Of a stretch of 64,000 bases of DNA, positions 50,939 through 64,000 are shown in pieces. Made by a program: the position numbers and the translations under genes. This DNA is from Candidatus Omnitrophota bacterium (GTDB lineage: Bacteria; Omnitrophota; Gorgyraeia; JABMRN01; RBG-13-46-9): NCBI GenBank assembly GCA_043817155.1, contig JBDRHE010000072.1:1345-65344 (forward strand). Reading direction: 5' to 3'. The notes beneath the pieces are model-generated. The model was not told the DNA's origin. It was given only the letters and a program-made list of their open reading frames with translations, and made no database searches. Numbering within the stretch: position 1 is the first letter of the stretch; each line of letters opens with the position of its first letter.

Positions 50939-52276
50939 ATGGATACCTGGATAAAACGAGATTTAAAACATAATTGGCACCCTTATACGCAGATGAAGGA
51001 TTGCAAGAGGCTGCCACCCATTCTGATCGAAAAGGCGAAGGGGTTAAAATTATATGATAATAAGGGTAAGTTCTATTACGATACCATATCCAGCTGGTGG
51101 TGTAATATCCATGGGCACAATCACCCTACGATAAGACGCGCCGTTAAAGAACAGCTGGATACCCTTGAACACGTACTGTTTGCCGGTTTTACTCACAAAC
51201 CGGCAATAATCTTATCAGAGAAACTCGTCTCGATCGCTCCAAAAAACCTTACAAGAGTATTCTATTCGGACAATGGATCGACAGCGGTTGAGACGGCAAT
51301 TAAGATGTCGCTTCAATACTGGTATAATACCGGCAGAAGCAACAAGAGAAGATTTATATCGCTGGATCATGGATACCATGGTGATACCGCAGGCGCTATG
51401 AGTGTAGGCGGCGTAAGCCTCTTTAACGAGGTATTCAGCCCGCTCCTCTTTAAGGCTTTCAAAGCGCCATCACCTTATTGCTATAGGTGTCCTATGGGCG
51501 AAGAGAGAGACTCCTGTGGTATAGAATGCATAAAGCCGCTCGAGAAGATATTAAAGGCAAAGAGTGGCGAAATAGCCGGCATGATCCTGGAGCCGCTTGT
51601 CATGGCAGCGGGCGGAATGATAATCTATCCGAAGGAGTACCTAAAGAAGGCGCGCGAACTTACCGGAAGATATAATGTGCATTTGATACTGGATGAGGTG
51701 GCTACCGGATTTGGAAGAACAGGGAAGATGTTCGCGTGTGAGCACACGAATACCAAGCCCGACTTCATGTGTCTCTCTAAAGGCATCACATCCGGATACA
51801 TGCCGCTTGCCGCGACACTTACTACCGGCAAGATATATAGAGCTTTCTACGCCGATCTCGAAAAGAAGAAGACCTTCTATCACGGTCACACCTACACCGC
51901 CAATCCTCTGGCATGCAGAGCGGCGCTGGCAAGTCTCGAGATCTTTAAAAATGAGGATACGCTTAAAAGGGTAGAAGCGATAGCTCCCATCTTTAATGAA
52001 GAGCTAGCAATGTTCAGAAACCTAAAGTTAATAGGGGATGTCAGGCACATAGGTATGATAGGGGCCCTTGAGCTTGTAAAGGATAAGAGCACAAAGGAGC
52101 CCTTCGCCATTAAAGATGGGATAGGCGCACGCATCTATAAGGAGGGGCTCAAGAAGAATCTTCTACTCAGGCCGCTTGGGAACATAGTCTACTTCTACCT
52201 ACCGCTTTGCATAAAGAAATCGGAGCTTCGCACCATCCTGAAGCGAACCTTCAAAATAATTAAAAGAATATATTGA
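50939..52276 (+). CDS. bioA: Adenosylmethionine-8-amino-7-oxononanoate aminotransferase.
   Basis: Class III aminotransferase with an LDEVATGFGRTG motif. 445 aa. Confidence 0.9.
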   Translation: MDTWIKRDLKHNWHPYTQMKDCKRLPPILIEKAKGLKLYDNKGKFYYDTISSWWCNIHGHNHPTIRRAVKEQLDTLEHVLFAGFTHKPAIILSEKLVSIAPKNLTRVFYSDNGSTAVETAIKMSLQYWYNTGRSNKRRFISLDHGYHGDTAGAMSVGGVSLFNEVFSPLLFKAFKAPSPYCYRCPMGEERDSCGIECIKPLEKILKAKSGEIAGMILEPLVMAAGGMIIYPKEYLKKARELTGRYNVHLILDEVATGFGRTGKMFACEHTNTKPDFMCLSKGITSGYMPLAATLTTGKIYRAFYADLEKKKTFYHGHTYTANPLACRAALASLEIFKNEDTLKRVEAIAPIFNEELAMFRNLKLIGDVRHIGMIGALELVKDKSTKEPFAIKDGIGARIYKEGLKKNLLLRPLGNIVYFYLPLCIKKSELRTILKRTFKIIKRIY

Positions 52277-52431
52277 CAGAAGTTTTTTTTCTGCTACAAT
52301 TGAAATTGAATTTCAATGTCATCCTCCTGCGCCATAGCAGAAATTCACTGTATCTATGCTCCGGAGGATGCTATCCACCGAAGCCAAACACGGTAAGTAT
52401 TTGGCGAAGGTGGATCAATAGACGCCACCGT

Positions 52432-52627
52432 CTCGTCTTTGCGAGGTGCCGTGATTTACTGAGCGCACCGAAGCAATCTCAAACGAGCTCGAATGAGATT
52501 GCCTGCCTGCCAGTATATTTCGGGCAGGCAGGCTTCGGCACGCTCGAATATTCCGGTGCCTCGCAAAGACAGAGTAAAATGAGACTGCTTCGGCACACTC
52601 CGAATTTTTTGGTATCTCGCAATGATG
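52432..52627. repeat. Family C element, copy C6, plus a degenerate extra right-end fragment.
   Basis: CTCGTCTTTGCGAGGTGCCGTGATTTACTGAGCGCACCGAAGCAATCTC...GATTGCCTGCCTGCCAGTATATTTCGGGCAGGCAGGCTTCGGCACGCTCGAATATTCCGGTGCCTCGCAAAGAC, then GAGACTGCTTCGGCACACTCCGAAT. Confidence 0.85.
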
Positions 52628-52649
52628 TGCTGGATGAGAGGAGAGTAAT

Positions 52650-53075
52650 ATGAGCAAAGAGCTGGAGCTTTTTAACTCGTTCCTGAAGAAGAAGAATCTA
52701 AAGGTTACCAAACAAAGGGAAGAGCTATTAAAGATATTCTTAAATACGAGAAAACACCTTAGCGTTGAAGAATTCTATAACATTGCCAAGAAGAGAGACC
52801 ACCGCATAGGTCTTGCTACTGCGTTTAGAACGCTCAAGCTTTTGAAGGAGATGGGTATTGCCAAAGAGGTGCTCCTCGGGGATAAGATCATAAGATATGA
52901 GAGGAAGTACGGACACGGTCATCACGATCACCTTGTGTGCACTGATTGCGGAAAATGTATAGAGGCCGTAGACCCCAAAATAGAGGAGCTGCAGGATACC
53001 CTCTGTAAGAGATTTGGGTTTAAACCCGAACGGCACAGAATGGAGATCTTTGGCCTTTGTAAAAAATGTAGATAA
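52650..53075 (+). CDS. fur: Fur family transcriptional regulator.
   Basis: HHDHLVC..C zinc/regulatory site and a winged-helix N-terminus. Strong ribosome-binding site. Confidence 0.85.
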   Translation: MSKELELFNSFLKKKNLKVTKQREELLKIFLNTRKHLSVEEFYNIAKKRDHRIGLATAFRTLKLLKEMGIAKEVLLGDKIIRYERKYGHGHHDHLVCTDCGKCIEAVDPKIEELQDTLCKRFGFKPERHRMEIFGLCKKCR

Positions 53076-53149: not shown

Positions 53150-53638
53150 ATGAAGAAGATTGCGATAGTTGGAAGTCCTAACGTAGGCAAGAGCGTCTTA
53201 TTTAATGCGCTTACTAAAAGGTATGTAACGGTATCGAACTATCCCGGTACGACGGTCGAAGTTTCGCGAGGAAGGATAGAACTGGAAGGCATGGAGTATG
53301 AGGTAATCGATACGCCGGGGATGTATTCTCTTATGCCGATCACAGAAGAGGAGCGTGTTGCCAGAAGGATTCTTATAAATGAGAAGCCCGATATCGTCCT
53401 CCATGTACTCGATGCAAAGAACTTAGAGAGAATGTTATCTTTGACCTTGCAGCTATCGGAGGCGCATCTTCACACCATATTGGTGCTCAATATCATGGAT
53501 GAAGCAGCCAAAGAGGGAGTCTTTATAGATACCGCGCTACTTGAAAAGGAACTGAAGATTCCCGTTTTAGAGACTGTCTCTACAAAAGGCAAGGGGATAG
53601 AGGAGCTTAAGAAGAGGATTGTCAATCATGACAAATGA
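53150..53638 (+). CDS. feoB: Ferrous iron transporter FeoB, N-terminal GTPase domain, encoded as a separate ORF.
   Basis: GSPNVGKS (G1), DTPG (G3) and NIMD (G4) motifs. 162 aa. Confidence 0.8.
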   Translation: MKKIAIVGSPNVGKSVLFNALTKRYVTVSNYPGTTVEVSRGRIELEGMEYEVIDTPGMYSLMPITEEERVARRILINEKPDIVLHVLDAKNLERMLSLTLQLSEAHLHTILVLNIMDEAAKEGVFIDTALLEKELKIPVLETVSTKGKGIEELKKRIVNHDK

Positions 53639-55076
53639 ATATAAAGGACCGGTCGAATACTCTATAGAGATCGCAGCTGAGAGGATCGAGGCCCTCTTAA
53701 AGGCCGATTACGGCATCTCCAAGCGGTCAATCGCTCTCCTTCTTTTGCAGGAGGATGGCGAAATATTGGATCTTGCGAAGGAGAGAGATCCTGGATCCTT
53801 TCCTGAGATAGATGAATCTATAGAGGAGCTCAAATCACATTATTCCAATCCGATTGTGTACGAGCTGGCGGTTGAAAGGCAAAACGTAGTAAAGGAGATA
53901 ACAGGGAAGGTAGTGAAACTGCGCAAAACTAAGGTCTCTTTCCAGGAAAGATTGAGCCGTCTTACAACGAATCCGGTAACGGGGATACCCATACTTCTAT
54001 TTATTCTTTACATAGGGTTGTATAAGTTTGTAGGTGGGTTTGGCGCAGGAACCATAGTTGATTTTTTGGAGAGGACTATCTTCGAAGAGCGCCTGAATCC
54101 TTTTTTGATAGACCTATTTACCCGCTTTGTTCCATGGGGGGTTATACGGGATCTATTTGTCGGGGAATACGGATTAGTAACGATGGGATTCAGGTATGCA
54201 GTAGCATTGATATTGCCCATCGTTACTCTCTTCTTTGTTGTATTCTCTATAATAGAAGATAGCGGTTATCTGCCGCGCCTTGCGATGCTGATCGACAGAA
54301 CGTTCAAAAAGATCGGCTTAAGCGGAAGGGCTGTTATACCTATGGTGCTGGGGTTCGGATGCGCAACAATGGCAACAATGGTTACAAGGACTCTTCCGAC
54401 CAAACGTGAGCGTGTTATTGCGACCATGCTTCTTGCTCTGGCTGTACCGTGTTCAGCGCAGCTTGGAGTTATCCTGGCTCTTCTGGAGGGTAAGACCGGC
54501 GCTATGTTCATATGGGTCGGGGTGGTTAGTTTTATATTTTTATTTATCGGTTTTCTGACAGCAAAAATTCTACCGGGAGAGAGGCCGTCATTCTATATGG
54601 AGATACCGCCACTACGCATGCCGGGGCTCTCCAATGTGCTTACAAAGACATACGTAAGGGTTAAGTGGTATTTTAAAGAGATACTGCCGATCTTTCTTAT
54701 AGCGAGCGTTCTTATATGGTTTGGTCAGCTTATAGGACTATTTGATCTATTAATAAGGTTTCTTGCAAAACCCGTAGCTCTTATAGGTTTACCTGAGGAA
54801 GCGGCAAAGATATTCTTGTTCGGTTTTTTTAGGCGGGACTATGGTGCAGCCGGGCTTTATGACCTTAATAAGCAGGGGCTATTAAGCGGCGTGCAGCTTG
54901 TAGTCGCATGTGTAGCTTTGACACTATTCCTTCCGTGTATCGCGCAGTTCCTTATTAATGTAAAAGAACGCGGATGGAAGACCGGGTTTGCAATATCGAT
55001 ATTCATACTCTTCTTCTCTTTTGGAGCTGCGTATACGGTCAATCTCCTGTTGACAAGATTGGGAGTGGTGTTATGA
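53628..55076 (+). CDS. feoB: FeoB GDI/helical domain plus membrane permease domain, encoded as a separate ORF.
   Basis: 485 aa with gate-motif-containing TM helices. Overlaps the upstream ORF by 11 nt in the +1 frame. Confidence 0.8.
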   Translation: MTNEYKGPVEYSIEIAAERIEALLKADYGISKRSIALLLLQEDGEILDLAKERDPGSFPEIDESIEELKSHYSNPIVYELAVERQNVVKEITGKVVKLRKTKVSFQERLSRLTTNPVTGIPILLFILYIGLYKFVGGFGAGTIVDFLERTIFEERLNPFLIDLFTRFVPWGVIRDLFVGEYGLVTMGFRYAVALILPIVTLFFVVFSIIEDSGYLPRLAMLIDRTFKKIGLSGRAVIPMVLGFGCATMATMVTRTLPTKRERVIATMLLALAVPCSAQLGVILALLEGKTGAMFIWVGVVSFIFLFIGFLTAKILPGERPSFYMEIPPLRMPGLSNVLTKTYVRVKWYFKEILPIFLIASVLIWFGQLIGLFDLLIRFLAKPVALIGLPEEAAKIFLFGFFRRDYGAAGLYDLNKQGLLSGVQLVVACVALTLFLPCIAQFLINVKERGWKTGFAISIFILFFSFGAAYTVNLLLTRLGVVL

Positions 55077-55252
55077 TTAAGTGCACGCTCTGTGGACTTG
55101 AATTCAATAAAAGTGACGCGAAGGGCGGCTGCACGAGCTGTCCGATGTTAAAGAATAATTGCGAACTTGTAAGGTGTCCCAACTGCGGGTTTGAGACAGT
55201 TTGCCCCGTGGAACGGTCCAAAGATAAAAAGGAAGGAAACCTACCGAAATGA
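55073..55252 (+). CDS. Small Cys-rich (8 Cys) zinc-ribbon-like protein.
   Basis: MIKCTLCGLEF...GGCTSCPMLKNNCELVRCPNCGFE. Translationally coupled (TGATG-type overlap) to feoB and dtxR. Confidence 0.4.
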   Translation: MIKCTLCGLEFNKSDAKGGCTSCPMLKNNCELVRCPNCGFETVCPVERSKDKKEGNLPK

Positions 55253-55887
55253 TATTGACGGACAAAGAAGAAGAGATATTGGAGAGGCTTTGGATAGAGT
55301 TGATAGAACAGAAGAAGGGTCTCTGTGATCCCGAGACCTTCAGAGACAATGAAAGCCTCGAACGCTTAGACGATCTGGGCTATATAAAAATAGAAGAAGC
55401 CCGGATAACTCTTACAGCGAAGGGTGAAGGCGAAGCGAAATATTGCGTAAGAAGGCACCGTCTGGCAGAGAGATTATTTGTAGATGTGTTTGACATCAAA
55501 ATGAAATCGGCTCACGCTCCAAGCTGCAAATTTGAACATCTGCTTCATAAGGGACTTGATGAGAGCATATGTACGCTTTTGGGTCACCCGAAAACATGTC
55601 CACATGGGAAGGCTATACCCGAAGGCAATTGTTGTAATAGGGCCAGGGTGGATCCAAAGAAAATTATAATGCCCTTGCACGAACTAGATGTGAATAAGAA
55701 AGCAAAGATCTGCTATCTTCAGACAAAAGACTCAAGCACCTTGCAGAAGGCCATTGCGATAGGCGCATTGCCTAATACGGAGATCTCTCTTATACAGAAG
55801 ACCCCCTCTATCGTGTTCCAGGTAGGGAAGAGTCAATTCGCCATAGACACCGAACTCGCAAGTCATATATACGTAAGGATATTATAG
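55249..55887 (+). CDS. DtxR/MntR family metal-dependent transcriptional regulator with a C-terminal FeoA (SH3-like) domain.
   Basis: N-terminal HTH. Metal-site residues in RRHRLAERLF...HAPSCKFEH. C-terminal FeoA-like beta domain. Confidence 0.7.
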   Translation: MILTDKEEEILERLWIELIEQKKGLCDPETFRDNESLERLDDLGYIKIEEARITLTAKGEGEAKYCVRRHRLAERLFVDVFDIKMKSAHAPSCKFEHLLHKGLDESICTLLGHPKTCPHGKAIPEGNCCNRARVDPKKIIMPLHELDVNKKAKICYLQTKDSSTLQKAIAIGALPNTEISLIQKTPSIVFQVGKSQFAIDTELASHIYVRIL

Positions 55888-57974: not shown

Positions 57975-58003
57975 TTGACAAAAGCCGAATTATAGTATAT
58001 AAT
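57975..58003 (+). promoter_or_regulatory. Consensus sigma70-type promoter TTGACA-17-TATAAT.
   Basis: TTGACA at 57975-57980 and TATAAT at 57998-58003. Predicted transcription start near 58010. Confidence 0.6.
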
Positions 58004-58025
58004 TGATAATGGAAACCGTTATCAA
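58003..58025 (+). promoter_or_regulatory. Inverted repeat TTGATAA-N9-TTATCAA overlapping the -10 element and transcription start: a candidate autoregulatory operator.
   Basis: Its arms match Fur-box half-sites (TGATAAT). Confidence 0.4.
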
Positions 58026-58038
58026 TAGGAGATGCGAA

Positions 58039-58509
58039 ATGCCCAGACGAGACGGAACAGGGCCACCATGGTGGCATGGAAGATTTAGGGGATGTGGCTA
58101 CAGGATGACTGTGCCGAGGCAGGCTATATTAGATGTATTATGCAGAACATCCAAGCATCTAAGCGCTGAGGATGTATATATGGCTGTTCATAAGGTCTAT
58201 CCCAATGTCGGCCTTACTACGATCTATCGTACTTTAGAATTATTGGTCCAGATGGGACTTGTTTTTAAGTTCGATTTCGGTGATGGAAGAGCACGCTATG
58301 AGTTATCAGAAGGACCAAAGGGAGCCAGGCATCACCATCATTTAGTCTGCACAAGCTGTGGCAGAGCCATTGATTATACAGATTTCATAGATGAAGAAGT
58401 AGAATTGCTTAACCAAACCGAAAAAGGACTCTCAAAAAAGTACAATTTCAAAATTACAAATCATCTCATCCAGTTCTATGGGCAATGCGATAGGTGTAAG
58501 AAGGGATAA
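58039..58509 (+). CDS. Fur family transcriptional regulator (second paralog) with a 22-aa Gly/Pro/Arg-rich N-terminal extension (MPRRDGTGPPWWHGRFRGCGYR).
   Basis: AGGAG ribosome-binding site 7 nt upstream of the ATG at 58039. The Fur core starts MTVPRQAILDVL. HHHHLVCTSCG regulatory site. Confidence 0.7.
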   Translation: MPRRDGTGPPWWHGRFRGCGYRMTVPRQAILDVLCRTSKHLSAEDVYMAVHKVYPNVGLTTIYRTLELLVQMGLVFKFDFGDGRARYELSEGPKGARHHHHLVCTSCGRAIDYTDFIDEEVELLNQTEKGLSKKYNFKITNHLIQFYGQCDRCKKG

Positions 58510-58521
58510 ATTTTTTTTCAA

Positions 58522-58548
58522 TGTAAATGACAATGATTGTCATTTACA
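58522..58548 (+). promoter_or_regulatory. Perfect 13-1-13 palindrome TGTAAATGACAAT-G-ATTGTCATTTACA, a Fur-family 7-1-7-type operator candidate (core TGACAATgATTGTCA).
   Basis: Lies between the Fur-family gene and the downstream small-protein/NifX-like operon. Compare the Fur box TGATAATnATTATCA. Confidence 0.55.
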
Positions 58549-58565
58549 AAAAAAAGGTGATTAAT

Positions 58566-58850
58566 ATGCCAGGTGGAGACGGAACTGGCCCTATTGGAAT
58601 GGGGCCGATGACAGGTGGTGGTAGAGGCCATTGTGCTGTTTCGGTTGGAAGAACGCGGAATCGTACTTTTGCCGGGAGATCTTTTGGTGGAGGCAGACGT
58701 CGAGGCTGCGCCGGCCTGCCGACTTGGATGCGATTTAATCAAATGCAGGCAGAAGAAGAGCTTGAAACGCTTAAAGCATATGCGGGTGACATGAAACAAG
58801 AACTCGCGAATATAGAAGAGCGCATAGAAACTCTGCAAAAGTCAAAATGA
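58566..58850 (+). CDS. Small Gly/Pro/Arg-rich protein with a C-terminal coiled coil. It resembles the DUF5320-type proteins found next to NifX-like genes in anaerobes.
   Basis: MPGGDGTGPIGMGPMTGGGRGHCA... then EELETLKAYAGDMKQELANIEERIETLQK. AAGGTGA ribosome-binding site. Confidence 0.55.
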   Translation: MPGGDGTGPIGMGPMTGGGRGHCAVSVGRTRNRTFAGRSFGGGRRRGCAGLPTWMRFNQMQAEEELETLKAYAGDMKQELANIEERIETLQKSK

Positions 58851-58884
58851 GAAAGTAAATAAGAAAGAGATACACACGATATAA

Positions 58885-59259
58885 ATGGAGGAACTGATGA
58901 AACTAGGGATAACTCTGGAAGATGAGAGAGGCATAGATGGCAATGTATCGCTTCATTTCGGGCAATGCAAATATTTTCTCATTGCGGACATAGAAGGCAA
59001 AAAGGTTGCGTGTTCAAAGGTTGTGCCTAATACAGCTGTGCATGGTGGTGGAGGATGTGTTGCAGTGGATGAGATTCTAAAACACAATATTACCCATGTT
59101 ATATCAGGCGGTATGGGTATGGGCGCCCAGAATAAATTTGCTCAAGCAGGCGTTAAGGTTTTTGGATATTCTGGCAAGGTAAAAGACGCGGTAGACGCGC
59201 TTATTAAGAATAATCTAGGCGGATTAGATGCTTGTCATCAGCATGGAGAGTGTAGTTAA
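58885..59259 (+). CDS. NifX/NifB-C-terminal-like dinitrogenase FeMo-cofactor-binding domain protein.
   Basis: About 120 aa with HFGQCKYFLIADIEGKK... and VISGGMG motifs of the NifX/NafY fold. Confidence 0.7.
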   Translation: MEELMKLGITLEDERGIDGNVSLHFGQCKYFLIADIEGKKVACSKVVPNTAVHGGGGCVAVDEILKHNITHVISGGMGMGAQNKFAQAGVKVFGYSGKVKDAVDALIKNNLGGLDACHQHGECS

Positions 59260-59271
59260 AAAAAGGAGATA

Positions 59272-59652
59272 ATGATGAAAGTTTGTGTTACCTCAGAAGG
59301 AAATGCTTTAGATGCCAAGGTTGATCAGCGTTTTGGAAGATGCCAGTATTTCATATTTGTTGATACAGAGACCTTAGAATTTGAGGCAATTGAAAACCCT
59401 AACATTAGTGCTTCTGGCGGTGCCGGTATTCAAGCAGCTCAACTTGTTGCACAGGAGGAAGTAAAGGCAATTTTGACCGGCAATGTGGGTCCAAATGCCT
59501 TTCAAACGTTACAAGCAGCAGGGATCGGTGTGATTACCGGAGCATCCGGTACTGTTAAAGATGTGATAGAGAAGTACAAAAAGAGTGAATTTAAGCCAAC
59601 CCAGGGTCCAAGTGTAAATTCGAAATTCGGCATACCCGGAAAAGAAAAGTAA
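59272..59652 (+). CDS. NifX-like FeMo-cofactor-binding domain protein (paralog).
   Basis: RFGRCQYFIFVD and ILTGNVGPNA motifs. Strong ribosome-binding site. Confidence 0.7.
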   Translation: MMKVCVTSEGNALDAKVDQRFGRCQYFIFVDTETLEFEAIENPNISASGGAGIQAAQLVAQEEVKAILTGNVGPNAFQTLQAAGIGVITGASGTVKDVIEKYKKSEFKPTQGPSVNSKFGIPGKEK

Positions 59653-59666
59653 GGGAGGATCATAAG

Positions 59667-59891
59667 ATGCCATTTAAAGACGCAGCGGGACCAATCGGTC
59701 AGGGTCCAGGTCAAGGTCGAGGCATGGGTAGAGGAGGTAGGCGAAGCAGAGGTCGTCACATTGCGCCTGGCGCAGGACCCGGGGGATATTGTGTCTGCCC
59801 AAGATGTGGCACAAAGATTTCTCATCAGGCCGGGGCACCATGCGGTTCTTTAAATTGTTCAAAATGTGGAAGTCGAATGGCGCGGGAGTAA
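59667..59891 (+). CDS. Small Gly/Pro/Arg-rich protein with a C-terminal zinc ribbon (paralog of the N-termini at 58039 and 58566).
   Basis: MPFKDAAGPIGQGPGQGRGMGRGGRRSRGR...CVCPRCG...CSKCG. AGGGAGG ribosome-binding site. Confidence 0.5.
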   Translation: MPFKDAAGPIGQGPGQGRGMGRGGRRSRGRHIAPGAGPGGYCVCPRCGTKISHQAGAPCGSLNCSKCGSRMARE

Positions 59892-59894
59892 TTC

Positions 59895-60503
59895 TTGGAA
59901 GAGCAATTATCAGAAAACCATAAAAGATATTTAGAGAGAATAAATTTTTACAAAGATTTTGGTTATGATGTTGAAGAAGAGAGAAAATTTATCTTAGAAA
60001 AGTCATGCCCTCTCTATGGAGATATAGTAGAGGTAGGAACGGGCAAGGGATATTTCACTGTTGAACTTGCCAAAGAAGGATACAACTTTACCACTATAGA
60101 TATTTCAGATGAAGAGCAGGAATTTGCCAGACTTAATATAAGATATTTCGGCCTTGAAAAACTTGTAGATTTTAGAATAGAGAACGCCGAGTACTTGAGT
60201 TTTGATAATTCCAGCTTCGATATAATATTTTCTATTAATACAATTCATCATCTTACCAATCCGGCTAAGGTAACAGAAGAGCTGATAAGGATAGTTACTC
60301 TTGAAGGAAAGATAATTTTAAGCGATTTCACCGAAGACGGTTTAAAAATTATAAATAAAATTCATGCAACTGAAGGACGAGTGCATGAAGCCGGTCAAAC
60401 AAGTTTATCAGAAGTAGGTAATTATTTAGAGCAGAGAAGATTCGGTATGCAAAAGCATAAAAGCAGGTTTCAGGAGATACTTATCGCATATCGCCAAAGG
60501 TGA
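59895..60503 (+). CDS. Class I SAM-dependent methyltransferase.
   Basis: VEVGTGKGYFT motif I. TTG start. Its stop codon lies inside repeat A4. Confidence 0.65.
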   Translation: MEEQLSENHKRYLERINFYKDFGYDVEEERKFILEKSCPLYGDIVEVGTGKGYFTVELAKEGYNFTTIDISDEEQEFARLNIRYFGLEKLVDFRIENAEYLSFDNSSFDIIFSINTIHHLTNPAKVTEELIRIVTLEGKIILSDFTEDGLKIINKIHATEGRVHEAGQTSLSEVGNYLEQRRFGMQKHKSRFQEILIAYRQR

Positions 60504-60552
60504 TATGTGTTTTTGATGGAGGGGGGCCCGGACTTTAGTCCGGGGGCTCCAC
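60491..60552. repeat. Family A element, partial copy A4 (hairpin 3 plus spacer).
   Basis: TCGCCAAAGGTGATATGTGTTTTTGATGGAGGGGGGCCCGGACTTTAGTCCGGGGGCTCCAC. Ends 5 nt before the ATG of the MinD-like gene. Confidence 0.8.
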
Positions 60553-60557
60553 TAGTT

Positions 60558-61394
60558 ATGATTATATCAATTGCCAGCGGAAAAGGCGGAACAGGAAAAA
60601 CCACAGTTGCTACAAGTCTCGCCCTCTCCATAAATAGCGGTATTCAGCTTTTGGACTGTGATGTAGAAGAGCCCAACGCCCATATATTCCTAAAACCTAA
60701 AATTCAACAAAGCAAAACCGTATATATCCCCGTACCTAAAATAGACGAATCTAAATGTACCTTTTGCGGGAGATGTGCGGAAGTTTGCACTTATAATGCT
60801 CTTGCCGTACTGAAAGAGAAAGTTTTAACGTTCCCGCATCTATGCCACGGCTGTGGAGGGTGTAATCTTTTTTGTCCCCAGAAAGCGATTACAGAAGGCG
60901 ATAAAAAAATAGGTGTCGTAGAGATTGGCAATTCATCTCACGTGCAATTTGTGCATGGAAGATTAAATATTGGTGAAGTAATGTCGCCCCCCCTGATTAG
61001 AGCGGTTAAAGAGTATATCAACCCAACCAGATCCGTTATTGTAGACGCTCCTCCGGGTACATCCTGTCCTGTTATCGAATCGGTTAAGGGAAGCGACTTT
61101 TGTATATTAGTTACCGAGCCAACACCTTTTGGTTTAAATGATCTAATATTGGCTGTTGAGGTCTTGAAAAAATTAACTATACCTTTCGGGATAGCGGTCA
61201 ATAGGGCTGATATCGGAGATAGCAGCCTAGACGATTATTGCGAGAAAGAGAATATTCCTATACTAATGCGGATACCTTTTAAAAAGAAAATAGCTTTTGC
61301 CTATTCAAAAGGGCTTGCTCTTGTTAGTGAATTTCCAGAATATAAGAAGGAATTTATTCGAGTTTATAAAGAAATTTCAGAAAGAATAAGATGA
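60558..61394 (+). CDS. MinD/Mrp-like P-loop ATPase with an inserted 2x(4Fe-4S) ferredoxin domain.
   Basis: SGKGGTGKTT Walker A motif plus CTFCGRCAEVC and CHGCGGCNLFCP motifs. Confidence 0.75.
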   Translation: MIISIASGKGGTGKTTVATSLALSINSGIQLLDCDVEEPNAHIFLKPKIQQSKTVYIPVPKIDESKCTFCGRCAEVCTYNALAVLKEKVLTFPHLCHGCGGCNLFCPQKAITEGDKKIGVVEIGNSSHVQFVHGRLNIGEVMSPPLIRAVKEYINPTRSVIVDAPPGTSCPVIESVKGSDFCILVTEPTPFGLNDLILAVEVLKKLTIPFGIAVNRADIGDSSLDDYCEKENIPILMRIPFKKKIAFAYSKGLALVSEFPEYKKEFIRVYKEISERIR

Positions 61395-62236
61395 AGCAAA
61401 TAGTAGTAATCAGCGGAAAGGGTGGTACGGGTAAGACTGTGTTAACAGCATCATTTGCTGCTTTGGCGAAAAACGCTAGTTTCGCAGACTGTGATGTAGA
61501 TGCGCCTGATCTGCATTTATTATTAAAACCGGAAATAAAGGAAAAGCATGAATTTAGAAGCGGAAAGACGGCAAAGATAGATAAGAGACTCTGCCAGGAA
61601 TGCGGTAAATGTATTGATATATGCAGGTTTGATGCGTTACGTAAAGATTTTACAATAGATTCTATTTCCTGTGAAGGCTGTGCTGTTTGTAGTCGCGTAT
61701 GTCCAACTAATGCAATCACCATGGAAGAGAATCTATCGGGAGAATGGTTTATTTCAGAAACAAAATATGGCCCCATGGTACACGCAAGGCTTGGCATCGC
61801 TGAGGAAAACTCGGGTAAGCTTGTAACGTTAGTGAGGCAAAATGCGAAGAAAATCGCGGAAGAAAGAAATAAAGACTATTGTATTATTGATGGGCCTCCG
61901 GGAATTGGATGTCCGGTGATCGCTTCATTAGCCAATGTAGATCTAGCCTTGATAGTTACAGAACCCACCCTGTCGGGTATCCATGATATGGAACGGGTCG
62001 CCGATGTTACTAAGCACTTTAGCATCAATACAAAGGTCGTAATAAATAAGTACGATATTAATTTTAAAAACGCCCAGGATATTAGAAAAATATGCCAAGT
62101 CAGGAAAGTAGAAGTTGTGGCCGAGTTGCCCTTTTCTGAAAATGTAACCAGGTCGGTAGTGCGAGGTATGCCCATTGTTGAATTCTGCAATGACCAAATA
62201 GCAAAGGATATAGTTGCTTTATGGAAGAAGATTTAG
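61391..62236 (+). CDS. MinD/Mrp-like P-loop ATPase with an inserted 4Fe-4S ferredoxin domain (paralog).
   Basis: SGKGGTGKTV plus CQECGKCIDIC and CEGCAVCSRVCP motifs. ATGA overlap with the upstream gene. Confidence 0.75.
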   Translation: MKQIVVISGKGGTGKTVLTASFAALAKNASFADCDVDAPDLHLLLKPEIKEKHEFRSGKTAKIDKRLCQECGKCIDICRFDALRKDFTIDSISCEGCAVCSRVCPTNAITMEENLSGEWFISETKYGPMVHARLGIAEENSGKLVTLVRQNAKKIAEERNKDYCIIDGPPGIGCPVIASLANVDLALIVTEPTLSGIHDMERVADVTKHFSINTKVVINKYDINFKNAQDIRKICQVRKVEVVAELPFSENVTRSVVRGMPIVEFCNDQIAKDIVALWKKI

Positions 62237-62601
62237 TTGCTTATCCAGAACATATTATAGCGCTTGCTAAGGACTCCACACACTTTGGAAGAATGAATGA
62301 TCCTACGAGTGCAGCAATCATTAAAGGGCCTTGCGGCGATGAAATGGAATTTTATCTTGTTATTAAGGACAGGATTATTGAGGATATAAAATTTTACACT
62401 AAAGGATGCTTAGCTACAATCGTCTGCGGCTCTATGACCGCACAGTTAGCATTAGGAAAATCTATTGACGAAGTACTGGGGATTTCTCCCAAAGAGGTTG
62501 TTGATGCCTTGAGTGGTTTATCAGAAGATCACTGTCACTGCTCTATTTTGGCTGTCAGTGCCATTTATAGGGCCATTGCGGATTACCTACTTAAGAAATG
62601 A
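62221..62601 (+). CDS. IscU/NifU N-terminal-like Fe-S scaffold domain protein.
   Basis: GPCGDEM, GCLATIVCGS and HCHCS motifs (the three Cys plus His of IscU). Confidence 0.7.
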   Translation: MEEDLVAYPEHIIALAKDSTHFGRMNDPTSAAIIKGPCGDEMEFYLVIKDRIIEDIKFYTKGCLATIVCGSMTAQLALGKSIDEVLGISPKEVVDALSGLSEDHCHCSILAVSAIYRAIADYLLKK

Positions 62602-62604
62602 AAC

Positions 62605-63318
62605 ATGCAAATAAAAATACTTTTTGATAGCGTTGCTTTGGATAATAGGTTTTTAACGGGTTGGGGTGTTTCATATTTGATTGATGGTAAGATTTTATTC
62701 GATACAGGGGAGAAATCAAGCTCGTTGCTTAAAAATATGAAAAATATGGATGTAGATATTTCCAATTTGAAAGCAGTGATTATTTCTCATGATCATTGGG
62801 ATCACAGAGGTGGTTTATGGGGAATTTTAAAAAAAAATCCCAAACTGAAAGTTTATATTTGTCCTCGTTTCAGTAAAAGATCCAAGAATAGGATTGTATC
62901 CCATGGAGGTCAATTAATCGAAGTTGATAAATTTACTCAGATATGTAAAAATATATATACTACCGGAGAGATAGGAGGAAAATATAATGGCAAGCACATG
63001 CCGGAACAAGCCTTAGTTTTAAAAACATCAAAAGGTATATCGATTCTTACGGGGTGCGCCCATCCGGGCATAATGAGGATAATTGAAAATGCGAAACAAA
63101 ATATTGCTGGCAATGTTTATCTTGTAATGGGTGGTTTTCATTTGAGAGGAAAGCATAAAAAAACAATCAGTCCCATCGTAAGTAAATTTAAGCAATTGGG
63201 AGTGAAGAAAGCTGCACCTGCTCATTGCACAGGCAGAGGAGCAAAAAGAATCTTTTTGAAGGTTTACAAGCGCAATTTTACTTCGATAAAAACCGGACAG
63301 ATAATAAATATCTGGTAA
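62605..63318 (+). CDS. MBL-fold metallo-hydrolase.
   Basis: ISHDHWDHRGG metal-binding motif. Confidence 0.65.
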   Translation: MQIKILFDSVALDNRFLTGWGVSYLIDGKILFDTGEKSSSLLKNMKNMDVDISNLKAVIISHDHWDHRGGLWGILKKNPKLKVYICPRFSKRSKNRIVSHGGQLIEVDKFTQICKNIYTTGEIGGKYNGKHMPEQALVLKTSKGISILTGCAHPGIMRIIENAKQNIAGNVYLVMGGFHLRGKHKKTISPIVSKFKQLGVKKAAPAHCTGRGAKRIFLKVYKRNFTSIKTGQIINIW

Positions 63319-63339
63319 ACTAAAAAAGGGGACGTTATT

Positions 63340-64000
63340 ATGAAATACATAGAGATTGAAAATCTTAGCGTTAGTTATGCCGGTAAACGTATGAAAAGAG
63401 CCCTGCGAGGTCTCAATCTCACTGTAAATAAAGGACATATTTATGGCTTTCTCGGTCCTAACGGAGCAGGGAAAACCACGGCCATTAAAACAATGATAGG
63501 ATTAATTCCGGAATACGAAGGCAAGGTGCTAATATTTGGCGGAGCTCCTACTGAGTTATCGGGCAAATATAAAATGGGATTTATGCCTGAAATAGCGAAC
63601 TACTATTGGTATCTTACGCCAAGGGAATTATTGAAAATGTATGCGCGAATATTCAATATCGATAAAAAAAAGACCGCTACTAAGATTGAAGAATTGCTTA
63701 ACTTGGTAGATTTAAACGATGCTGCTGATGATATGCTGAAAACTTTTTCCAAAGGAATGATGCAAAAGGTTAATTTTGCACAAGCGCTTATCAATGATCC
63801 CGAACTGCTTATTCTAGATGAGCCAACAAGCGGGCTAGATCCCCTTTCAAGGATTAAGATGAGAGATGTTATCAAGGAACTCCAACGTAGAGGAAAAACG
63901 ATATTCTTTTCTTCTCATGAATTGTCCGAAGTCGAGATGATCTGTGACAAAGTAGCGATCATAAAAGAAGGTACGTTATTGAGGTCCGGTAAGCTGGAGA
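63340..64000 (+). CDS. ABC transporter ATP-binding protein (3' end beyond the window).
   Basis: GPNGAGKTT Walker A, LSGGQ-like SKGMMQK signature and ILDEPTSGLD Walker B. No stop before the window end. Confidence 0.7.
   Translation, partial: MKYIEIENLSVSYAGKRMKRALRGLNLTVNKGHIYGFLGPNGAGKTTAIKTMIGLIPEYEGKVLIFGGAPTELSGKYKMGFMPEIANYYWYLTPRELLKMYARIFNIDKKKTATKIEELLNLVDLNDAADDMLKTFSKGMMQKVNFAQALINDPELLILDEPTSGLDPLSRIKMRDVIKELQRRGKTIFFSSHELSEVEMICDKVAIIKEGTLLRSGKLE

Follow-up and report, generated by a model that had tools for sequence, protein, structure and literature searches.

The 64,000-nucleotide stretch of a Candidatus Omnitrophota contig analysed here (the window) contains an operon whose gene set matches the orange protein (ORP) complex of Desulfovibrio and which, judged from its sequence, is a variant of that system with a dedicated Fur paralog. 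We consider it likely that this is an ORP-type metal-sulfur cluster operon under the control of its own Fur-family repressor, with iron as the most probable co-repressor.

Layout and conservation of the operon

Ten co-oriented open reading frames lie between 57975 and 63318, spaced by -16 to +56 nt; eleven genes were originally counted here but ten listed, and a further co-oriented gene, encoding an ABC ATPase, starts at 63340, beyond the interval. The features are:

57975-58003, + strand: promoter P1, with -35 TTGACA at 57975-57980, a 17-nt spacer and -10 TATAAT at 57998-58003; 12/12 consensus
58004-58024, no strand: operator 1, TGATAATGGAAACCGTTATCA, a palindrome with 19-bp Fur box geometry; predicted site
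58039-58509, + strand: Fur-family regulator, 156 aa (PF01475, 110.6 bits)
58522-58548, no strand: operator 2, TGTAAATGACAATgATTGTCATTTACA, a perfect 13-1-13 palindrome; predicted site
58566-58850, + strand: DUF5320 protein, 94 aa (PF17253, 69.2 bits, full model length)
58885-59259, + strand: NifX-like protein 1 (IPR003731 / Nitro_FeMo-Co), 124 aa, Cys/His-rich C-terminus (PF02579, 66.7 bits)
59272-59652, + strand: NifX-like protein 2, 126 aa, Orp8 / MTH1175-type (PF02579, 94.7 bits)
59667-59891, + strand: 74-aa protein (ORF): MPxxDxxGP cap, then a Gly/Arg-rich stretch of pI 12, and a double CPxCG knuckle at the C-terminus
59895-60503, + strand: class I SAM-dependent methyltransferase, accessory (Methyltransf_11, 69.2 bits)
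60485-60514, + strand: hairpin resembling a terminator, with T5 after it, where the methyltransferase gene ends (terminator scan)
60507-61394, + strand: MinD/ParA-type P-loop ATPase with an inserted 2x[4Fe-4S] ferredoxin domain, copy A (CbiA, ParA, Fer4)
61391-62236, + strand: MinD/ParA-type P-loop ATPase with an inserted 2x[4Fe-4S] ferredoxin domain, copy B (CbiA, ParA, Fer4)
62221-62601, + strand: IscU/NifU-N-type Fe-S scaffold, accessory (PF01592, 82.9 bits)
62605-63318, + strand: metallo-beta-lactamase (MBL)-fold protein, accessory (PF00753, 37.6 bits)

HMM searches back each of the domain calls made in the original prediction, and FUR, DUF5320, Nitro_FeMo-Co (twice), NifU_N, Lactamase_B, a methyltransferase domain and CbiA/ParA (twice) all score above the Pfam gathering score. 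The operon had also been placed next to iron-uptake and CODH/ACS genes. The former do lie nearby, with fur and feoB 3-5 kb upstream in the same window, whereas the CODH/ACS genes are 18-24 kb upstream and thus within the window yet not adjacent.

Close relatives of the regulator are encoded in 222 species genomes, and the 80 loci that we examined span more than ten phyla, among them Omnitrophota, Nitrospirota, WOR-3, TA06, Cloacimonadota, Clostridia, Elusimicrobiota, Ignavibacteria, Calditrichota and Atribacterota. The expectation that the neighbourhood would recur in other genomes held: the order Fur, DUF5320, two NifX-like proteins, small zinc-ribbon protein and two MinD-ferredoxin ATPases is kept, and among loci with enough sequence the Fur gene is followed by a NifX-like gene in 59/64 species loci and by the first MinD-ferredoxin ATPase gene in 40/47. 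This order is also present in metagenome contigs and for Fur relatives at 56% and 41% identity. Variant operons contain FeoB, CDF-NifX fusion and IscU-type genes, and the accessory genes in the loci relate to iron and Fe-S (IscU, FeoB, radical SAM, ferredoxin). The methyltransferase gene occurs in part of the loci, mainly in Omnitrophota, and the MBL-fold gene likewise in part of them; in this lineage the operon encodes both of these and the IscU-type scaffold.

A consensus promoter and two conserved operators

P1, proposed earlier as a consensus promoter, is the sole 12/12 sigma-70 match in 7 kb. The pattern cTTGACA-N17-TATAAT/TATACT stands at the equivalent position in most related loci, across phyla, and in its strict form directly upstream of operator 1 in 33/66 loci. 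Operator 1 abuts the -10 hexamer, with the expected transcription start inside the operator, and the surrounding inverted repeat (palindrome 1) spans 58002-58026. For operator 1, the family's 19-bp consensus has one match in the window, with one mismatch, where 0.03 would be expected by chance. Counted as present at no more than 6 mismatches in 21, operator 1 was found in 66/74 species loci; in the Nitrospirota loci apparently devoid of it, the operator sits upstream of the preceding CGGC-domain gene. Operator 2 lies in the 56-nt fur-DUF5320 spacer, is preceded by a T8 tract and contains a 7-1-7 Fur-box core (TGACAATgATTGTCA, 58528-58542); its family consensus, AATGAAAATGATTATCATTAACA, was found in 70/78 loci. 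Both palindromes are conserved nearly base for base, at positions fixed with respect to -10 hexamer, RBS and stop codon, and thus the two operators suggested from this one genome stand as conserved elements. Operator 2 was also considered as a terminator and rejected, as the T tract has no stable hairpin before it and the palindrome lacks a U run behind it. A promoter scan of the window detected no strong internal promoter at operator 2.

A reading in which unrelated genes came together by chance behind a generic Fur gene, with palindromes that are chance AT-rich repeats, finds support in nothing but the general AT-richness of the spacers. The synteny over more than ten phyla, the base-by-base conservation of the operators at fixed positions and the low chance expectation for operator 1 refute this reading across the examined loci, and we give it practically no weight.

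The operator half-sites, TGAnAAT...ATTnTCA, form what we take from B. subtilis box work to be a Fur-type box rather than one for PerR or Zur. Under a Fur-dependent mechanism, transcription would begin at P1 and the Fur paralog, the product of the first gene, would bind the 21-bp operator 1 touching the -10 hexamer and silence the whole operon, including its own gene. By binding operator 2 as well, this protein could control the structural genes at a second point, acting there as a roadblock or masking a weak internal promoter.

A Fur paralog dedicated to the operon

The regulator starts at ATG 58039, behind the RBS AGGAG (58027-58031), and its first 22 residues, MPRRDGTGPPWWHGRFRGCGYR, form an N-terminal extension. 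Alignment with solved Fur structures begins only at residue 17; the extension is kept in 120 homologs, and its Cys is not invariant. In the remainder of the protein, H40, E88, H98-H101, H142 and two CxxC pairs are invariant, as are the positions matching site 2 of V. cholerae Fur (H33, E81, H88, H90) and the Cys4 zinc site. The window holds one further Fur paralog, which is canonical, and the 36% identity between the two marks the operon protein as a dedicated paralog, as had been proposed. To our knowledge, metal specificity in the Fur family is not readable from sequence; family membership, the conserved ligand residues and the operator type suggest that the operon is metal-responsive.

The top NCBIfam model for the regulator is the Bacillus-type Fur, at 126.9 bits versus 88.6 for the clostridial-type PerR, with the protein scoring under the cut-off of all curated Fur, PerR and Zur models. 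Its best solved relatives are Fur proteins, with B. subtilis PerR (2fe3) also among them. D. vulgaris orp operons answer redox potential through the Fe-S-containing activator OrpR (PMC8359166), and a PerR-like redox or peroxide sensor, in place of an iron sensor, could do OrpR's job here by switching the operon off or on under redox stress, a reading that the PerR model score, the presence of 2fe3 and the His-rich site common to Fur and PerR would allow. We regard this as unlikely, given the higher scores of the Fur models, the Fur proteins at the head of the solved relatives and the iron-transport genes carried by variant operons. The half-sites also read TGA...TCA, which is of Fur type, rather than the TTA...TAA of PerR. 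Fe(II) is the most probable co-repressor, in which case the operon would be de-repressed at iron scarcity; the suf operon is de-repressed when iron is scarce.

Likeness of the structural proteins to the ORP complex

The neighbourhood had been thought to have no assigned function, but the gene set matches that of the named Desulfovibrio ORP complex, for which there is partial biochemistry, with related work on IssA (PMC6345978, PMC8359166, PMC5524996). The set also bears a likeness to IssA. The closest solved relative of NifX-like protein 2, which shows about 68% identity across phyla, is the D. gigas orange protein (2wfb, E 7.5e-21), followed by MTH1175. For NifX-like protein 1 it is PH0822 (2yx6), and this protein has a further match, to the MrpORP model in that model's C-terminal domain. 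Both would serve as cluster carriers, one of them of the orange-protein type. The two ATPases with ferredoxin inserts resemble Orp3 and Orp4, which are paralogs with two [4Fe-4S] motifs each; Orp5 is described as related to a [2Fe-2S] protein (PMC6345978). In translation, copy A features a deviant Walker A (GKGGTGKT) and two CxxCxxCxxxC motifs, and its true start is likely ATG 60558; the start of copy B overlaps copy A by 4 nt. The scaffold protein scores 91.5 bits on the clostridial NifU model TIGR03419, under its cut-off of 187.9. A link between orp genes and iron is found in D. alaskensis G20, in which Dde_3197-3199 co-vary with feoA and flavodoxin (PMC10533852).

In contrast to Desulfovibrio, control here would lie with a Fur paralog and not with the sigma-54 activator OrpR, the promoter is of sigma-70 and not sigma-54 type, and no MrpORP of the Mrp/NBP35 type was found in the operon or elsewhere within the window. 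The absence of MrpORP and the sigma-70 promoter indicate that the operon is no straight copy of the Desulfovibrio system. A dedicated Fur paralog as regulator of an ORP-like operon appears not to have been described before.

Cell division was the first function proposed for the ORP complex, and MrpORP is found at the poles (PMC6345978, PMC3897727). The operon might instead encode a positioning or cell-division system in which the two MinD-like ATPases place a cellular structure and DUF5320, with its basic disordered region and coiled coil, is their adaptor, like MinE, ParB or McdB for other ParA/MinD ATPases. The deviant Walker A of the MinD/ParA class would fit this role. The other partners are metal-cluster proteins (NifX-like, IscU, ferredoxin inserts, rubredoxin-like knuckle), the Fur-type switch and the links to FeoB and a CDF transporter are better suited to metal handling, and no division gene was found conserved in the neighbourhood at the loci examined, all of which makes this reading improbable. 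The two are compatible in part, as a metal-sulfide body could be what the ATPases position.

Holding or trafficking of iron-sulfur (or heterometal-sulfide) clusters is our best reading of the operon's function. That the system handles heterometal-sulfide in particular, for instance thiomolybdate or thiotungstate together with Cu or Fe as the orange protein does in vitro, and that the Fur paralog senses such a metal in place of iron, seems to us a slim prospect. The Fur family has sensors for Zn, Mn and Ni, but we know of none for Mo or W. The cationic Gly/Arg proteins would be suitable for anionic metal-sulfides of any kind, and the orange protein nearest to NifX-like protein 2 holds a [S2MoS2CuS2MoS2]3- cluster (PMC6345978); against this, the 80 neighbourhoods show no conserved molybdopterin gene and no conserved transporter for molybdate or tungstate, and the accessory genes point to iron and Fe-S.

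DUF5320 resembles the IssA tail in composition and shares an N-terminal cap with the regulator

The DUF5320 protein starts at ATG 58566, behind the RBS AAGGTGAT, and has three parts: the N-terminal module MPGGDGTGP...GRGHC, a disordered stretch rich in Gly and Arg, and a coiled coil at the C-terminus. Its gene lies directly downstream of this type of regulator, including Fur relatives at 41-56% identity. The disordered part (29% Gly, 11% Arg+Lys, 16% aromatic, 10% Pro, one Cys, pI 10.2) resembles in composition the tail of IssA (21% Gly, 10% cationic, 20% aromatic, 16% Pro, one Cys, pI 10.7), a thioferrate iron-sulfur store whose clade includes the tail-less MTH1175 (PMC5524996). This compositional match seems to be new to the literature. 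By likeness to the role proposed for the IssA tail, the cationic, Gly/Arg-rich DUF5320 and zinc-ribbon proteins would probably hold anionic iron-sulfide or heterometal-sulfide species. The latter, the 74-aa protein, has homologs in 42/57 loci; its Pfam zinc-ribbon matches are weak only, and the knuckle is zinc-ribbon or rubredoxin-like.

From the corrected starts, the Fur and DUF5320 proteins both begin MP..DGTGP, and an HMM of the DUF5320 N-terminus matches that of the 74-aa protein (E 3.4e-5). The cap MPxxDGTGP occurs 130 times in 1.84 million six-frame residues, every time N-terminally and only on Fur of this type, DUF5320-like or small zinc-ribbon proteins; the Fur extension and the DUF5320 N-module show weak profile similarity (HMM E 0.08; hhalign P 0.04). 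We have found no earlier description of this cap, and its presence on the regulator and both small proteins suggests docking to the same partner or ligand, which, if true, would link repression to the machinery's state.

Induction of an Fe-S-rich operon by iron starvation is counter-intuitive, and IssA is produced only when iron is plentiful (PMC5524996). Regulation may therefore run in the opposite direction, the apo form acting as repressor or the cap lifting repression.

The hairpin at 60485-60514 folds at -18.7 kcal/mol (z = -1.9) and could act as an attenuator inside the operon or as a site of mRNA processing.

Gene content of the operon

The operon at 57975-63318 consists of ten co-oriented ORFs with intergenic gaps of -16 to +56 nt; the original prediction had counted eleven genes, but the next one starts outside, at 63340. 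Its domain calls held, as Pfam matches above the gathering score were obtained for Fur, DUF5320, two Nitro_FeMo-Co proteins (NifX1 and NifX2), a class I methyltransferase, two CbiA/ParA ATPases, NifU_N and an MBL fold. Each of the two P-loop ATPases contains two inserted 4Fe-4S motifs, which produce Fer4 matches and are visible in the translations, and a further small protein of 74 residues gives weak zinc-ribbon matches only. The elements discussed below are:

57975-58003, + strand: promoter P1
58004-58024: predicted operator 1
58039-58509, + strand: Fur paralog (the regulator), 156 aa
58522-58548: predicted operator 2
58566-58850, + strand: DUF5320 protein, 94 aa
58885-59259, + strand: NifX1
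59272-59652, + strand: NifX2
59667-59891, + strand: zinc-ribbon protein, 74 aa
60507-61394, + strand: ATPase A, MinD/ParA type with ferredoxin insert
61391-62236, + strand: ATPase B, same type

The Fur gene starts at ATG 58039 behind AGGAG, its product beginning MPRRDGTGP, and the DUF5320 gene starts at ATG 58566 behind AAGGTGAT, its product beginning MPGGDGTGP. As originally predicted, nitrogenase structural genes are missing: nitrogenase genes were found neither in the operon nor in 80 related neighbourhoods probed with the ten window proteins. NifX1 and NifX2 match none of the NifX, NafY and NifB NCBIfam models. With no model matches and no nif genes, a nitrogenase-related role in cofactor maturation of the NifX/NafY/NifB kind was rejected.

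Several features of the surrounding DNA were observed. An ABC transporter ATPase gene begins at 63340, 21 nt past the MBL gene, and continues beyond the window end at 64000; copies follow the same operon in a few relatives (75% identical in locus L024, weaker in L034, L043 and L023). At 60485-60557 a terminator-like hairpin with T5 at the end of the methyltransferase gene is followed by a GC-rich hairpin directly before ATG 60558, the likely true start of the first ATPase gene; at this point the operon may fall into two expression units. No Rfam matches were found at 52-64 kb. G+C content drops to 0.43, 0.40 and 0.37 across 58001-64000, with most of the window at about 0.45-0.49; this drop would be compatible with horizontal acquisition, which has been proposed in the literature for ORP genes.

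Promoter and predicted operators

P1 (TTGACA-17-TATAAT) matches the consensus at 12 of 12 positions and is the sole such match in 7 kb. Directly after it stands the operator 1 palindrome TGATAATGGAAACCGTTATCA, and the spacer between fur and the DUF5320 gene holds operator 2, a perfect 13-1-13 palindrome (TGTAAATGACAATgATTGTCATTTACA); the consensus promoter and the two palindromes put forward as operators in the original prediction are thus borne out. Operator 2 is a 7-1-7 box, TGAAAAT-G-ATTATCA, and operator 1 departs from the classical 19-bp Fur box in retaining nothing but its outer hexamers (GATAAT......ATTATC), which flank a conserved GGAAACC centre. Judging from the B. subtilis Fur, PerR and Zur boxes, we take the TGA...TCA signature of both operators to be Fur-type, not PerR- or Zur-type. 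The two conserved palindromes are putative Fur boxes, at the positions expected for the regulator's own and target promoters.

Alignment of the upstream regions of related loci shows the same arrangement recurring phylum after phylum: cTTGACA-N17-TATAAT or TATACT, then directly TGATAATGGAAACCATTATCAAT, then the RBS. Aligned fur-DUF5320 spacers read TATATTTTTTT, a few bases, TAAATGAAAATGATTATCATTAACAA and the RBS. Operator 1 is present in 66 of 74 loci (up to 6 mismatches in 21 allowed) and operator 2 in 70 of 78 (up to 6 in 23), with 90-100% conservation at the core positions. Nitrospirota loci that seemingly have no operator 1 carry a copy further upstream, at a distance of 420-590 bp (1.5 kb or so at most), before a CGGC-domain gene that precedes fur; as this gene lies between operator 1 and fur, it would be part of the regulated unit there. 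Apart from this displaced copy, no consistent extra operator sites were found within 9 kb in the 80 loci, and the 64-kb window holds no further copies of comparable quality. Genes with the CGGC domain (PF08821) accompany the operon repeatedly (L016 8361-8729, L001 6320-6763, L071 15688-16020).

Other roles of these elements were examined. DNA looping between the operators is unsupported, their spacing varying continuously over 514-545 bp with no helical phasing (R about 0.05). No internal promoter above the scan threshold was found at operator 2 in the window, and since only weak -35/-10-like hexamers occur there (TTTTCA, 17 nt, TGTCAT), a roadblock and a second promoter are equally likely. 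The T tract behind the stop codon of fur was considered as an intrinsic terminator and rejected: it is not preceded by a stable hairpin (z of -1.1 to -0.3 for the window and for two relatives), and the palindrome, which is AU-rich, lacks a U run after it.

The regulator is a dedicated Fur paralog of an uncurated subfamily

The regulator scores 110.6 bits on PF01475 (curated cut-off 23.1) and matches 24 solved Fur-family chains at E below 1e-5, the best being 9ire, a Fur. Its Cys4 zinc site of two CxxC pairs (C104, C107, C150 and C153) and the residues H40, E88, H98-H101 and H142 are invariant in 30 diverse homologs. In V. cholerae Fur (2w57) the metal-site residues correspond to H33, E81 and H87-H90, of which H33, E81, H88 and H90 make up the site; the neighbouring histidines are likewise invariant in the 30 homologs. 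All curated models are nevertheless missed: the best, a Bacillus-type Fur model, gives 126.9 bits (cut-off 220), the PerR model 88.6 bits (cut-off 180) and the Zur model 33.8 bits (cut-off 167), which places the regulator in an uncurated subfamily. A PerR-like redox sensor, a reading that would share the Fur-family fold, has less support than a metal-responsive Fur, given the order of these scores and the operator signature, and Fe(II) would be the most likely signal.

Solved structures align with the regulator only from residue 17 on. Ahead of the fold lies a 22-residue N-terminal extension, MPRGDGTGPPWWHGRFRGCGYR, which is kept throughout the subfamily; in the AlphaFold model, which is of low confidence (mean pLDDT 68.8), residues 1-7 are predicted to be disordered and residues 10-18 to form a low-confidence helix. 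Among plasmids, only canonical Fur with at most 42% identity was found. A protein 100% identical to the regulator is recorded for a Candidatus Omnitrophota MAG.

A second, canonical Fur is encoded at 52650-53075 in the same window and is 36% identical to the operon's Fur, so the regulator at 58039 is a dedicated paralog, as the original prediction had it. Other iron-related genes upstream of the operon are a split FeoB, a DtxR-FeoA fusion and an ArsP-type permease. The prediction had placed the operon beside fur and feoB, which lie 3-5 kb upstream, and beside the CODH/ACS locus, which does not adjoin it: the genes for the CODH/ACS corrinoid protein, RACo and a CooC-like protein are at 34.6-40 kb.

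The canonical fur region has features of its own. A promoter (TTGACA-17-TACAAT) with a perfect 7-1-7 palindrome, TGAAATTgAATTTCA, directly behind it occupies 52274-52315, some 335 nt ahead of the canonical fur-feoB genes. The architecture is the same as at P1, and the palindrome is probably the housekeeping Fur's own operator. Between this promoter and the canonical fur, a 126-aa ORF at 52273-52653 without a Pfam or Rfam match could be a small gene lacking annotation or else a long leader. FeoB is divided into a GTPase ORF (53150-53638) and a membrane-part ORF (53619-55076) with a 20-nt overlap, which would reflect a genuine split or else a frameshift. Further along, an ORF at 54974-55252, small and rich in Cys with several CxxC pairs, precedes the fusion of a DtxR-type metal-binding domain to FeoA (55249-55887), which would be a third metal regulator inside 6 kb.

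The operon is conserved across anaerobic phyla

A scan of one genome per species identified 222 genomes that encode a close relative of the operon's Fur. The best 80 of these relatives are 72-91% identical to it and come from Omnitrophota, Nitrospirota/Thermodesulfovibrionales, WOR-3, TA06, Cloacimonadota, Clostridia, Elusimicrobiota, Ignavibacteria, Calditrichota, Atribacterota, Eiseniibacteriota and Desulfobacteraceae. We probed the 80 neighbourhoods by tblastn, with the ten window proteins as the only queries. The order found nearly everywhere is Fur, DUF5320, NifX1, NifX2, zinc-ribbon protein, (methyltransferase), ATPase A, ATPase B, (NifU_N) and (MBL), the genes in brackets being variable. 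Among loci with enough downstream sequence, Fur is followed by a NifX-like gene in 59 of 64, by ATPase A in 40 of 47 and by ATPase B in 34 of 41, so the neighbourhood is conserved, a point on which the original prediction had staked itself. Precomputed Pfam labels give the same gene order on WOR-3 and Nitrospirota metagenome contigs.

The core set comprises Fur, DUF5320, the NifX-like pair, the zinc-ribbon protein and both ATPases, and the accessory genes vary as follows.

Accessory genes by lineage
Omnitrophota: methyltransferase, IscU, MBL
Nitrospirota: Mrp-like ATPase, CDF transporter-NifX-like fusion, Zn_ribbon_8, radical SAM
Ignavibacteria genome: DUF5320-ferredoxin fusion, radical SAM, FeoB
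Another lineage: CoA-binding, Pyr_redox_2, CGGC, DUF2099

In the Nitrospirota version, the CDF transporter fused to a NifX-like domain (L004 12059-13300; also L005) adjoins a ParA/Mrp-type ATPase and a Zn_ribbon_8 protein. In the Ignavibacteria locus L050 (10327-10836, 12829-14544), Fur-DUF5320 is followed by a fusion of DUF5320 to a 2x[4Fe-4S] ferredoxin, two radical SAM proteins and a full-length FeoB.

Fur relatives at 56% and 41% identity still have DUF5320 downstream of them, which makes Fur and DUF5320 the tightest pairing; these relatives lack the exact N-terminal motif MPxxDGTGP (the cap) and keep a WWxxRF-type extension. At locus L088 (6001-8055), DUF5320, a 67-aa ORF and an ARMT1-like (DUF89) gene come after the 41% identical relative, whose N-terminus reads MRHGRGWWKKRFRGRGLRIT; no NifX-like or ATPase genes are present, an arrangement which indicates that the Fur-DUF5320 pair can stand alone.

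An ORP-type cluster with a different predicted regulator

The ORP complex, which has reportedly been known since 2011, has to our knowledge been studied in Desulfovibrio only, under a sigma-54 redox sensor; the Fur-headed form described here is far more widespread, occurring in at least 222 species genomes from more than 10 mostly uncultured anaerobic phyla. Among solved structures, NifX2 is closest to the D. gigas orange protein 2wfb (E 7.5e-21, 113 of 126 residues) and next to MTH1175 (1eo1, E 7.6e-20), and NifX1 is closest to PH0822. Both match the 365-residue MrpORP model only at positions 265-363, its C-terminal domain, with 47 bits (NifX1) and 40 bits (NifX2) against a cut-off of 450. 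The Desulfovibrio complex includes Orp8, MrpORP, the paralogous ATPases Orp3 and Orp4 with two [4Fe-4S] motifs each, and Orp5, a small protein related to a [2Fe-2S] protein (PMC6345978). Its operons depend on sigma-54, IHF and the redox-sensing activator OrpR, which is restricted to Deltaproteobacteria and whose regulon consists of the orp operons only (PMC8359166).

Both the ORP complex of D. vulgaris and D. alaskensis (Orp3, Orp4, Orp5, Orp7, Orp8, Orp9/MrpORP; OrpR) and the window operon are anaerobe-specific clusters. They have in common an orange-protein-type NifX-like protein (Orp8, with NifX2 as its counterpart); two paralogous MinD-like ATPases with two [4Fe-4S] motifs each, the likeness to Orp3/Orp4 being drawn from their description; small Cys-containing proteins beside the NifX-like genes, the DUF5320 protein corresponding by position to an Orp5/Orp7 (Dde_3197)-type small Fe-S protein; and a dedicated regulator whose known targets are the cluster alone (PMC6345978, PMC8359166). 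A MinD-type positioning system, which the fold of the two ATPases would allow, has less support as a reading of the operon than the handling of Fe-S clusters, in view of the 4Fe-4S motifs in each ATPase and of the other metal-cluster proteins of the operon.

The window has one sigma-70 operon with a predicted Fur-family repressor and two putative Fur-box operators, whereas Desulfovibrio has two divergent sigma-54 operons under OrpR, a PAS-[4Fe-4S] enhancer-binding activator, with IHF. The Pfam listings of three related loci contain no enhancer-binding-protein gene. The Mrp/NBP35-NifX fusion (MrpORP, Orp9) is lacking, and a free second NifX-like protein is present instead; no Mrp domain occurs in the window operon, and Nitrospirota relatives carry a separate ParA/Mrp-type ATPase. 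Relative to the ORP complex, the window adds IscU, a methyltransferase, an MBL-fold protein and a zinc-ribbon Gly/Arg protein, and its regulator has an N-terminal cap in common with the small proteins. We therefore consider the operon an ORP-type cluster with another regulator and promoter class and without MrpORP. The original prediction had seen no assigned function for this gene set; given the ORP and IssA kinship the set belongs to a known, partly characterised kind, and the earlier reading is otherwise largely right. A heterometal (Mo/W-Cu) as the cargo of this orange-protein relative has less support than an Fe-S or iron-sulfide one. In the D. alaskensis G20 transcriptome the orp genes Dde_3197-3199 co-vary with feoA and flavodoxin (PMC10533852), which is compatible with a link to iron.

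Comparison with IssA and classical Fur regulons

IssA, the thioferrate storage protein of Pyrococcus furiosus, has a cationic Gly/Arg/aromatic tail, with one Cys and a pI of 10.7, attached to an IPR003731 domain, and the authors of the study proposed that this tail wraps anionic thioferrate; MTH1175 belongs to the IssA clade and is tail-less (PMC5524996). The window system has the same IPR003731 globular domain (NifX2 compared with MTH1175) and a disordered, cationic segment, rich in Gly, Arg and aromatic residues, that contains one Cys and has a pI above 10. Its expression, by analogy, would likewise be tied to iron. The composition of the disordered part of DUF5320, computed across 64 homologs, closely resembles that of the IssA tail.

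Composition of the DUF5320 disordered part (64 homologs) and the IssA tail
Gly: DUF5320 29%; IssA 21%
Cationic residues: DUF5320 11% (Arg+Lys); IssA 10%
Aromatic residues: DUF5320 16%; IssA 20%
Pro: DUF5320 10%; IssA 16%
Cys: DUF5320 one; IssA one
pI: DUF5320 10.2; IssA 10.7

The DUF5320 protein encoded in the window is a short variant poor in aromatic residues (5.6%). IssA carries its tail on the globular domain itself, while in the window the tail-like segments belong to two proteins of their own, DUF5320 and the 74-aa protein, which bear a coiled coil or a zinc ribbon; NifX1 and NifX2 have short C-terminal tails only, and an IssA-like tail fusion is absent. The window system also has ATPases and a Fur regulator, none of which has been described for IssA, and the binding of thioferrate (linear (FeS2-)n) with nanoparticle formation is a feature of IssA. 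The match suggests, by analogy, that DUF5320 is an IssA-like tail provided in trans and that DUF5320/ORP proteins hold anionic iron-sulfide. In the literature searched, DUF5320 was mentioned in two papers, both on unrelated subjects.

With classical Fur regulons (E. coli and B. subtilis, with an autoregulated fur and 19-bp or 7-1-7 boxes, and the Fur-repressed suf operon) the window shares the PF01475 fold, the His/Glu metal site and the Cys4 zinc site, as well as TGAnAAT-N-ATTnTCA palindromes overlapping or abutting the promoter; a further shared trait would be that the controlled operon is of the Fe-S assembly type. Unlike a classical Fur, the regulator stands as a local paralog next to a canonical one and is highly conserved across phyla (72-91% in the best 80 of 222), and unlike solved Fur proteins it bears its Gly/Pro/Trp/Arg extension of 22 residues. 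We infer that the operon is self-repressed, under the control of its own Fur, and that its products hold or pass on Fe-S or metal-sulfide clusters; the two sharply conserved predicted operators and the Fur-type sensor would link the system to metal status. The sign of regulation is the weakest step, as IssA is made when iron is plentiful and classical Fur repression would give expression at scarcity, like suf.

The regulator shares its N-terminal cap with two structural proteins

DUF5320 proteins start with MPGGDGTGPLGLGPMTGRAAGYCAGY and the small zinc-ribbon proteins with MPRGDGTGPFGQGPGTGRGMGRG. An HMM of the first 26 DUF5320 residues, searched against 716 six-frame window ORFs, ranked DUF5320 (5e-13), the 74-aa protein (3e-5) and Fur (0.08), each exactly at its predicted start. 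The pattern MP..[DN][GR][TAMCI]GP occurs 130 times in the 1.84 million six-frame residues of the window and the 80 loci, and all 130 occurrences are N-termini of Fur, DUF5320 or small zinc-ribbon proteins. It is on this exclusivity that the shared cap is based, and not on the profile-profile comparison between the Fur extension and the DUF5320 N-terminal module, which is weak (P 0.04). The Cys of the Fur extension is not invariant. The string GDGTGP was not found in the literature searched. As far as we could find, the cap common to regulator and structural proteins is new, as are the Fur-type regulator with its two predicted operators and the likeness in composition of DUF5320 to the tail of IssA.

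A cap common to the regulator and two structural proteins suggests a route for sensing iron-sulfide load; if this and the holding of iron-sulfide proposed above are true, the Fur family would gain a new input mode and DUF5320, a domain common in anaerobes, a role. Speculatively, and we consider this rather unlikely, the Fur paralog would be no plain metal sensor: its N-terminal module (MPxxDGTGP...GRxxGCGY) would copy that of the DUF5320 and zinc-ribbon proteins and compete for, or share, their partner or ligand, such that the loading state of the machinery sets repression within a split, ATPase-serviced, IssA-like storage system widespread in uncultured anaerobes. Candidate partners of the cap would be a NifX-like carrier, a MinD-ferredoxin ATPase or an Fe-S/iron-sulfide bridge held by the Cys of the module. 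Such a "tag-mimicry" feedback circuit, if true, would be without earlier description for the Fur family. Tandem N-terminal modules (MPGFNGTGP..., then MPGGDGTGP...) were observed within one DUF5320 ORF at L071 9537-10064 and also in L066, L074 and L084, indicating that the module is a duplicable unit.
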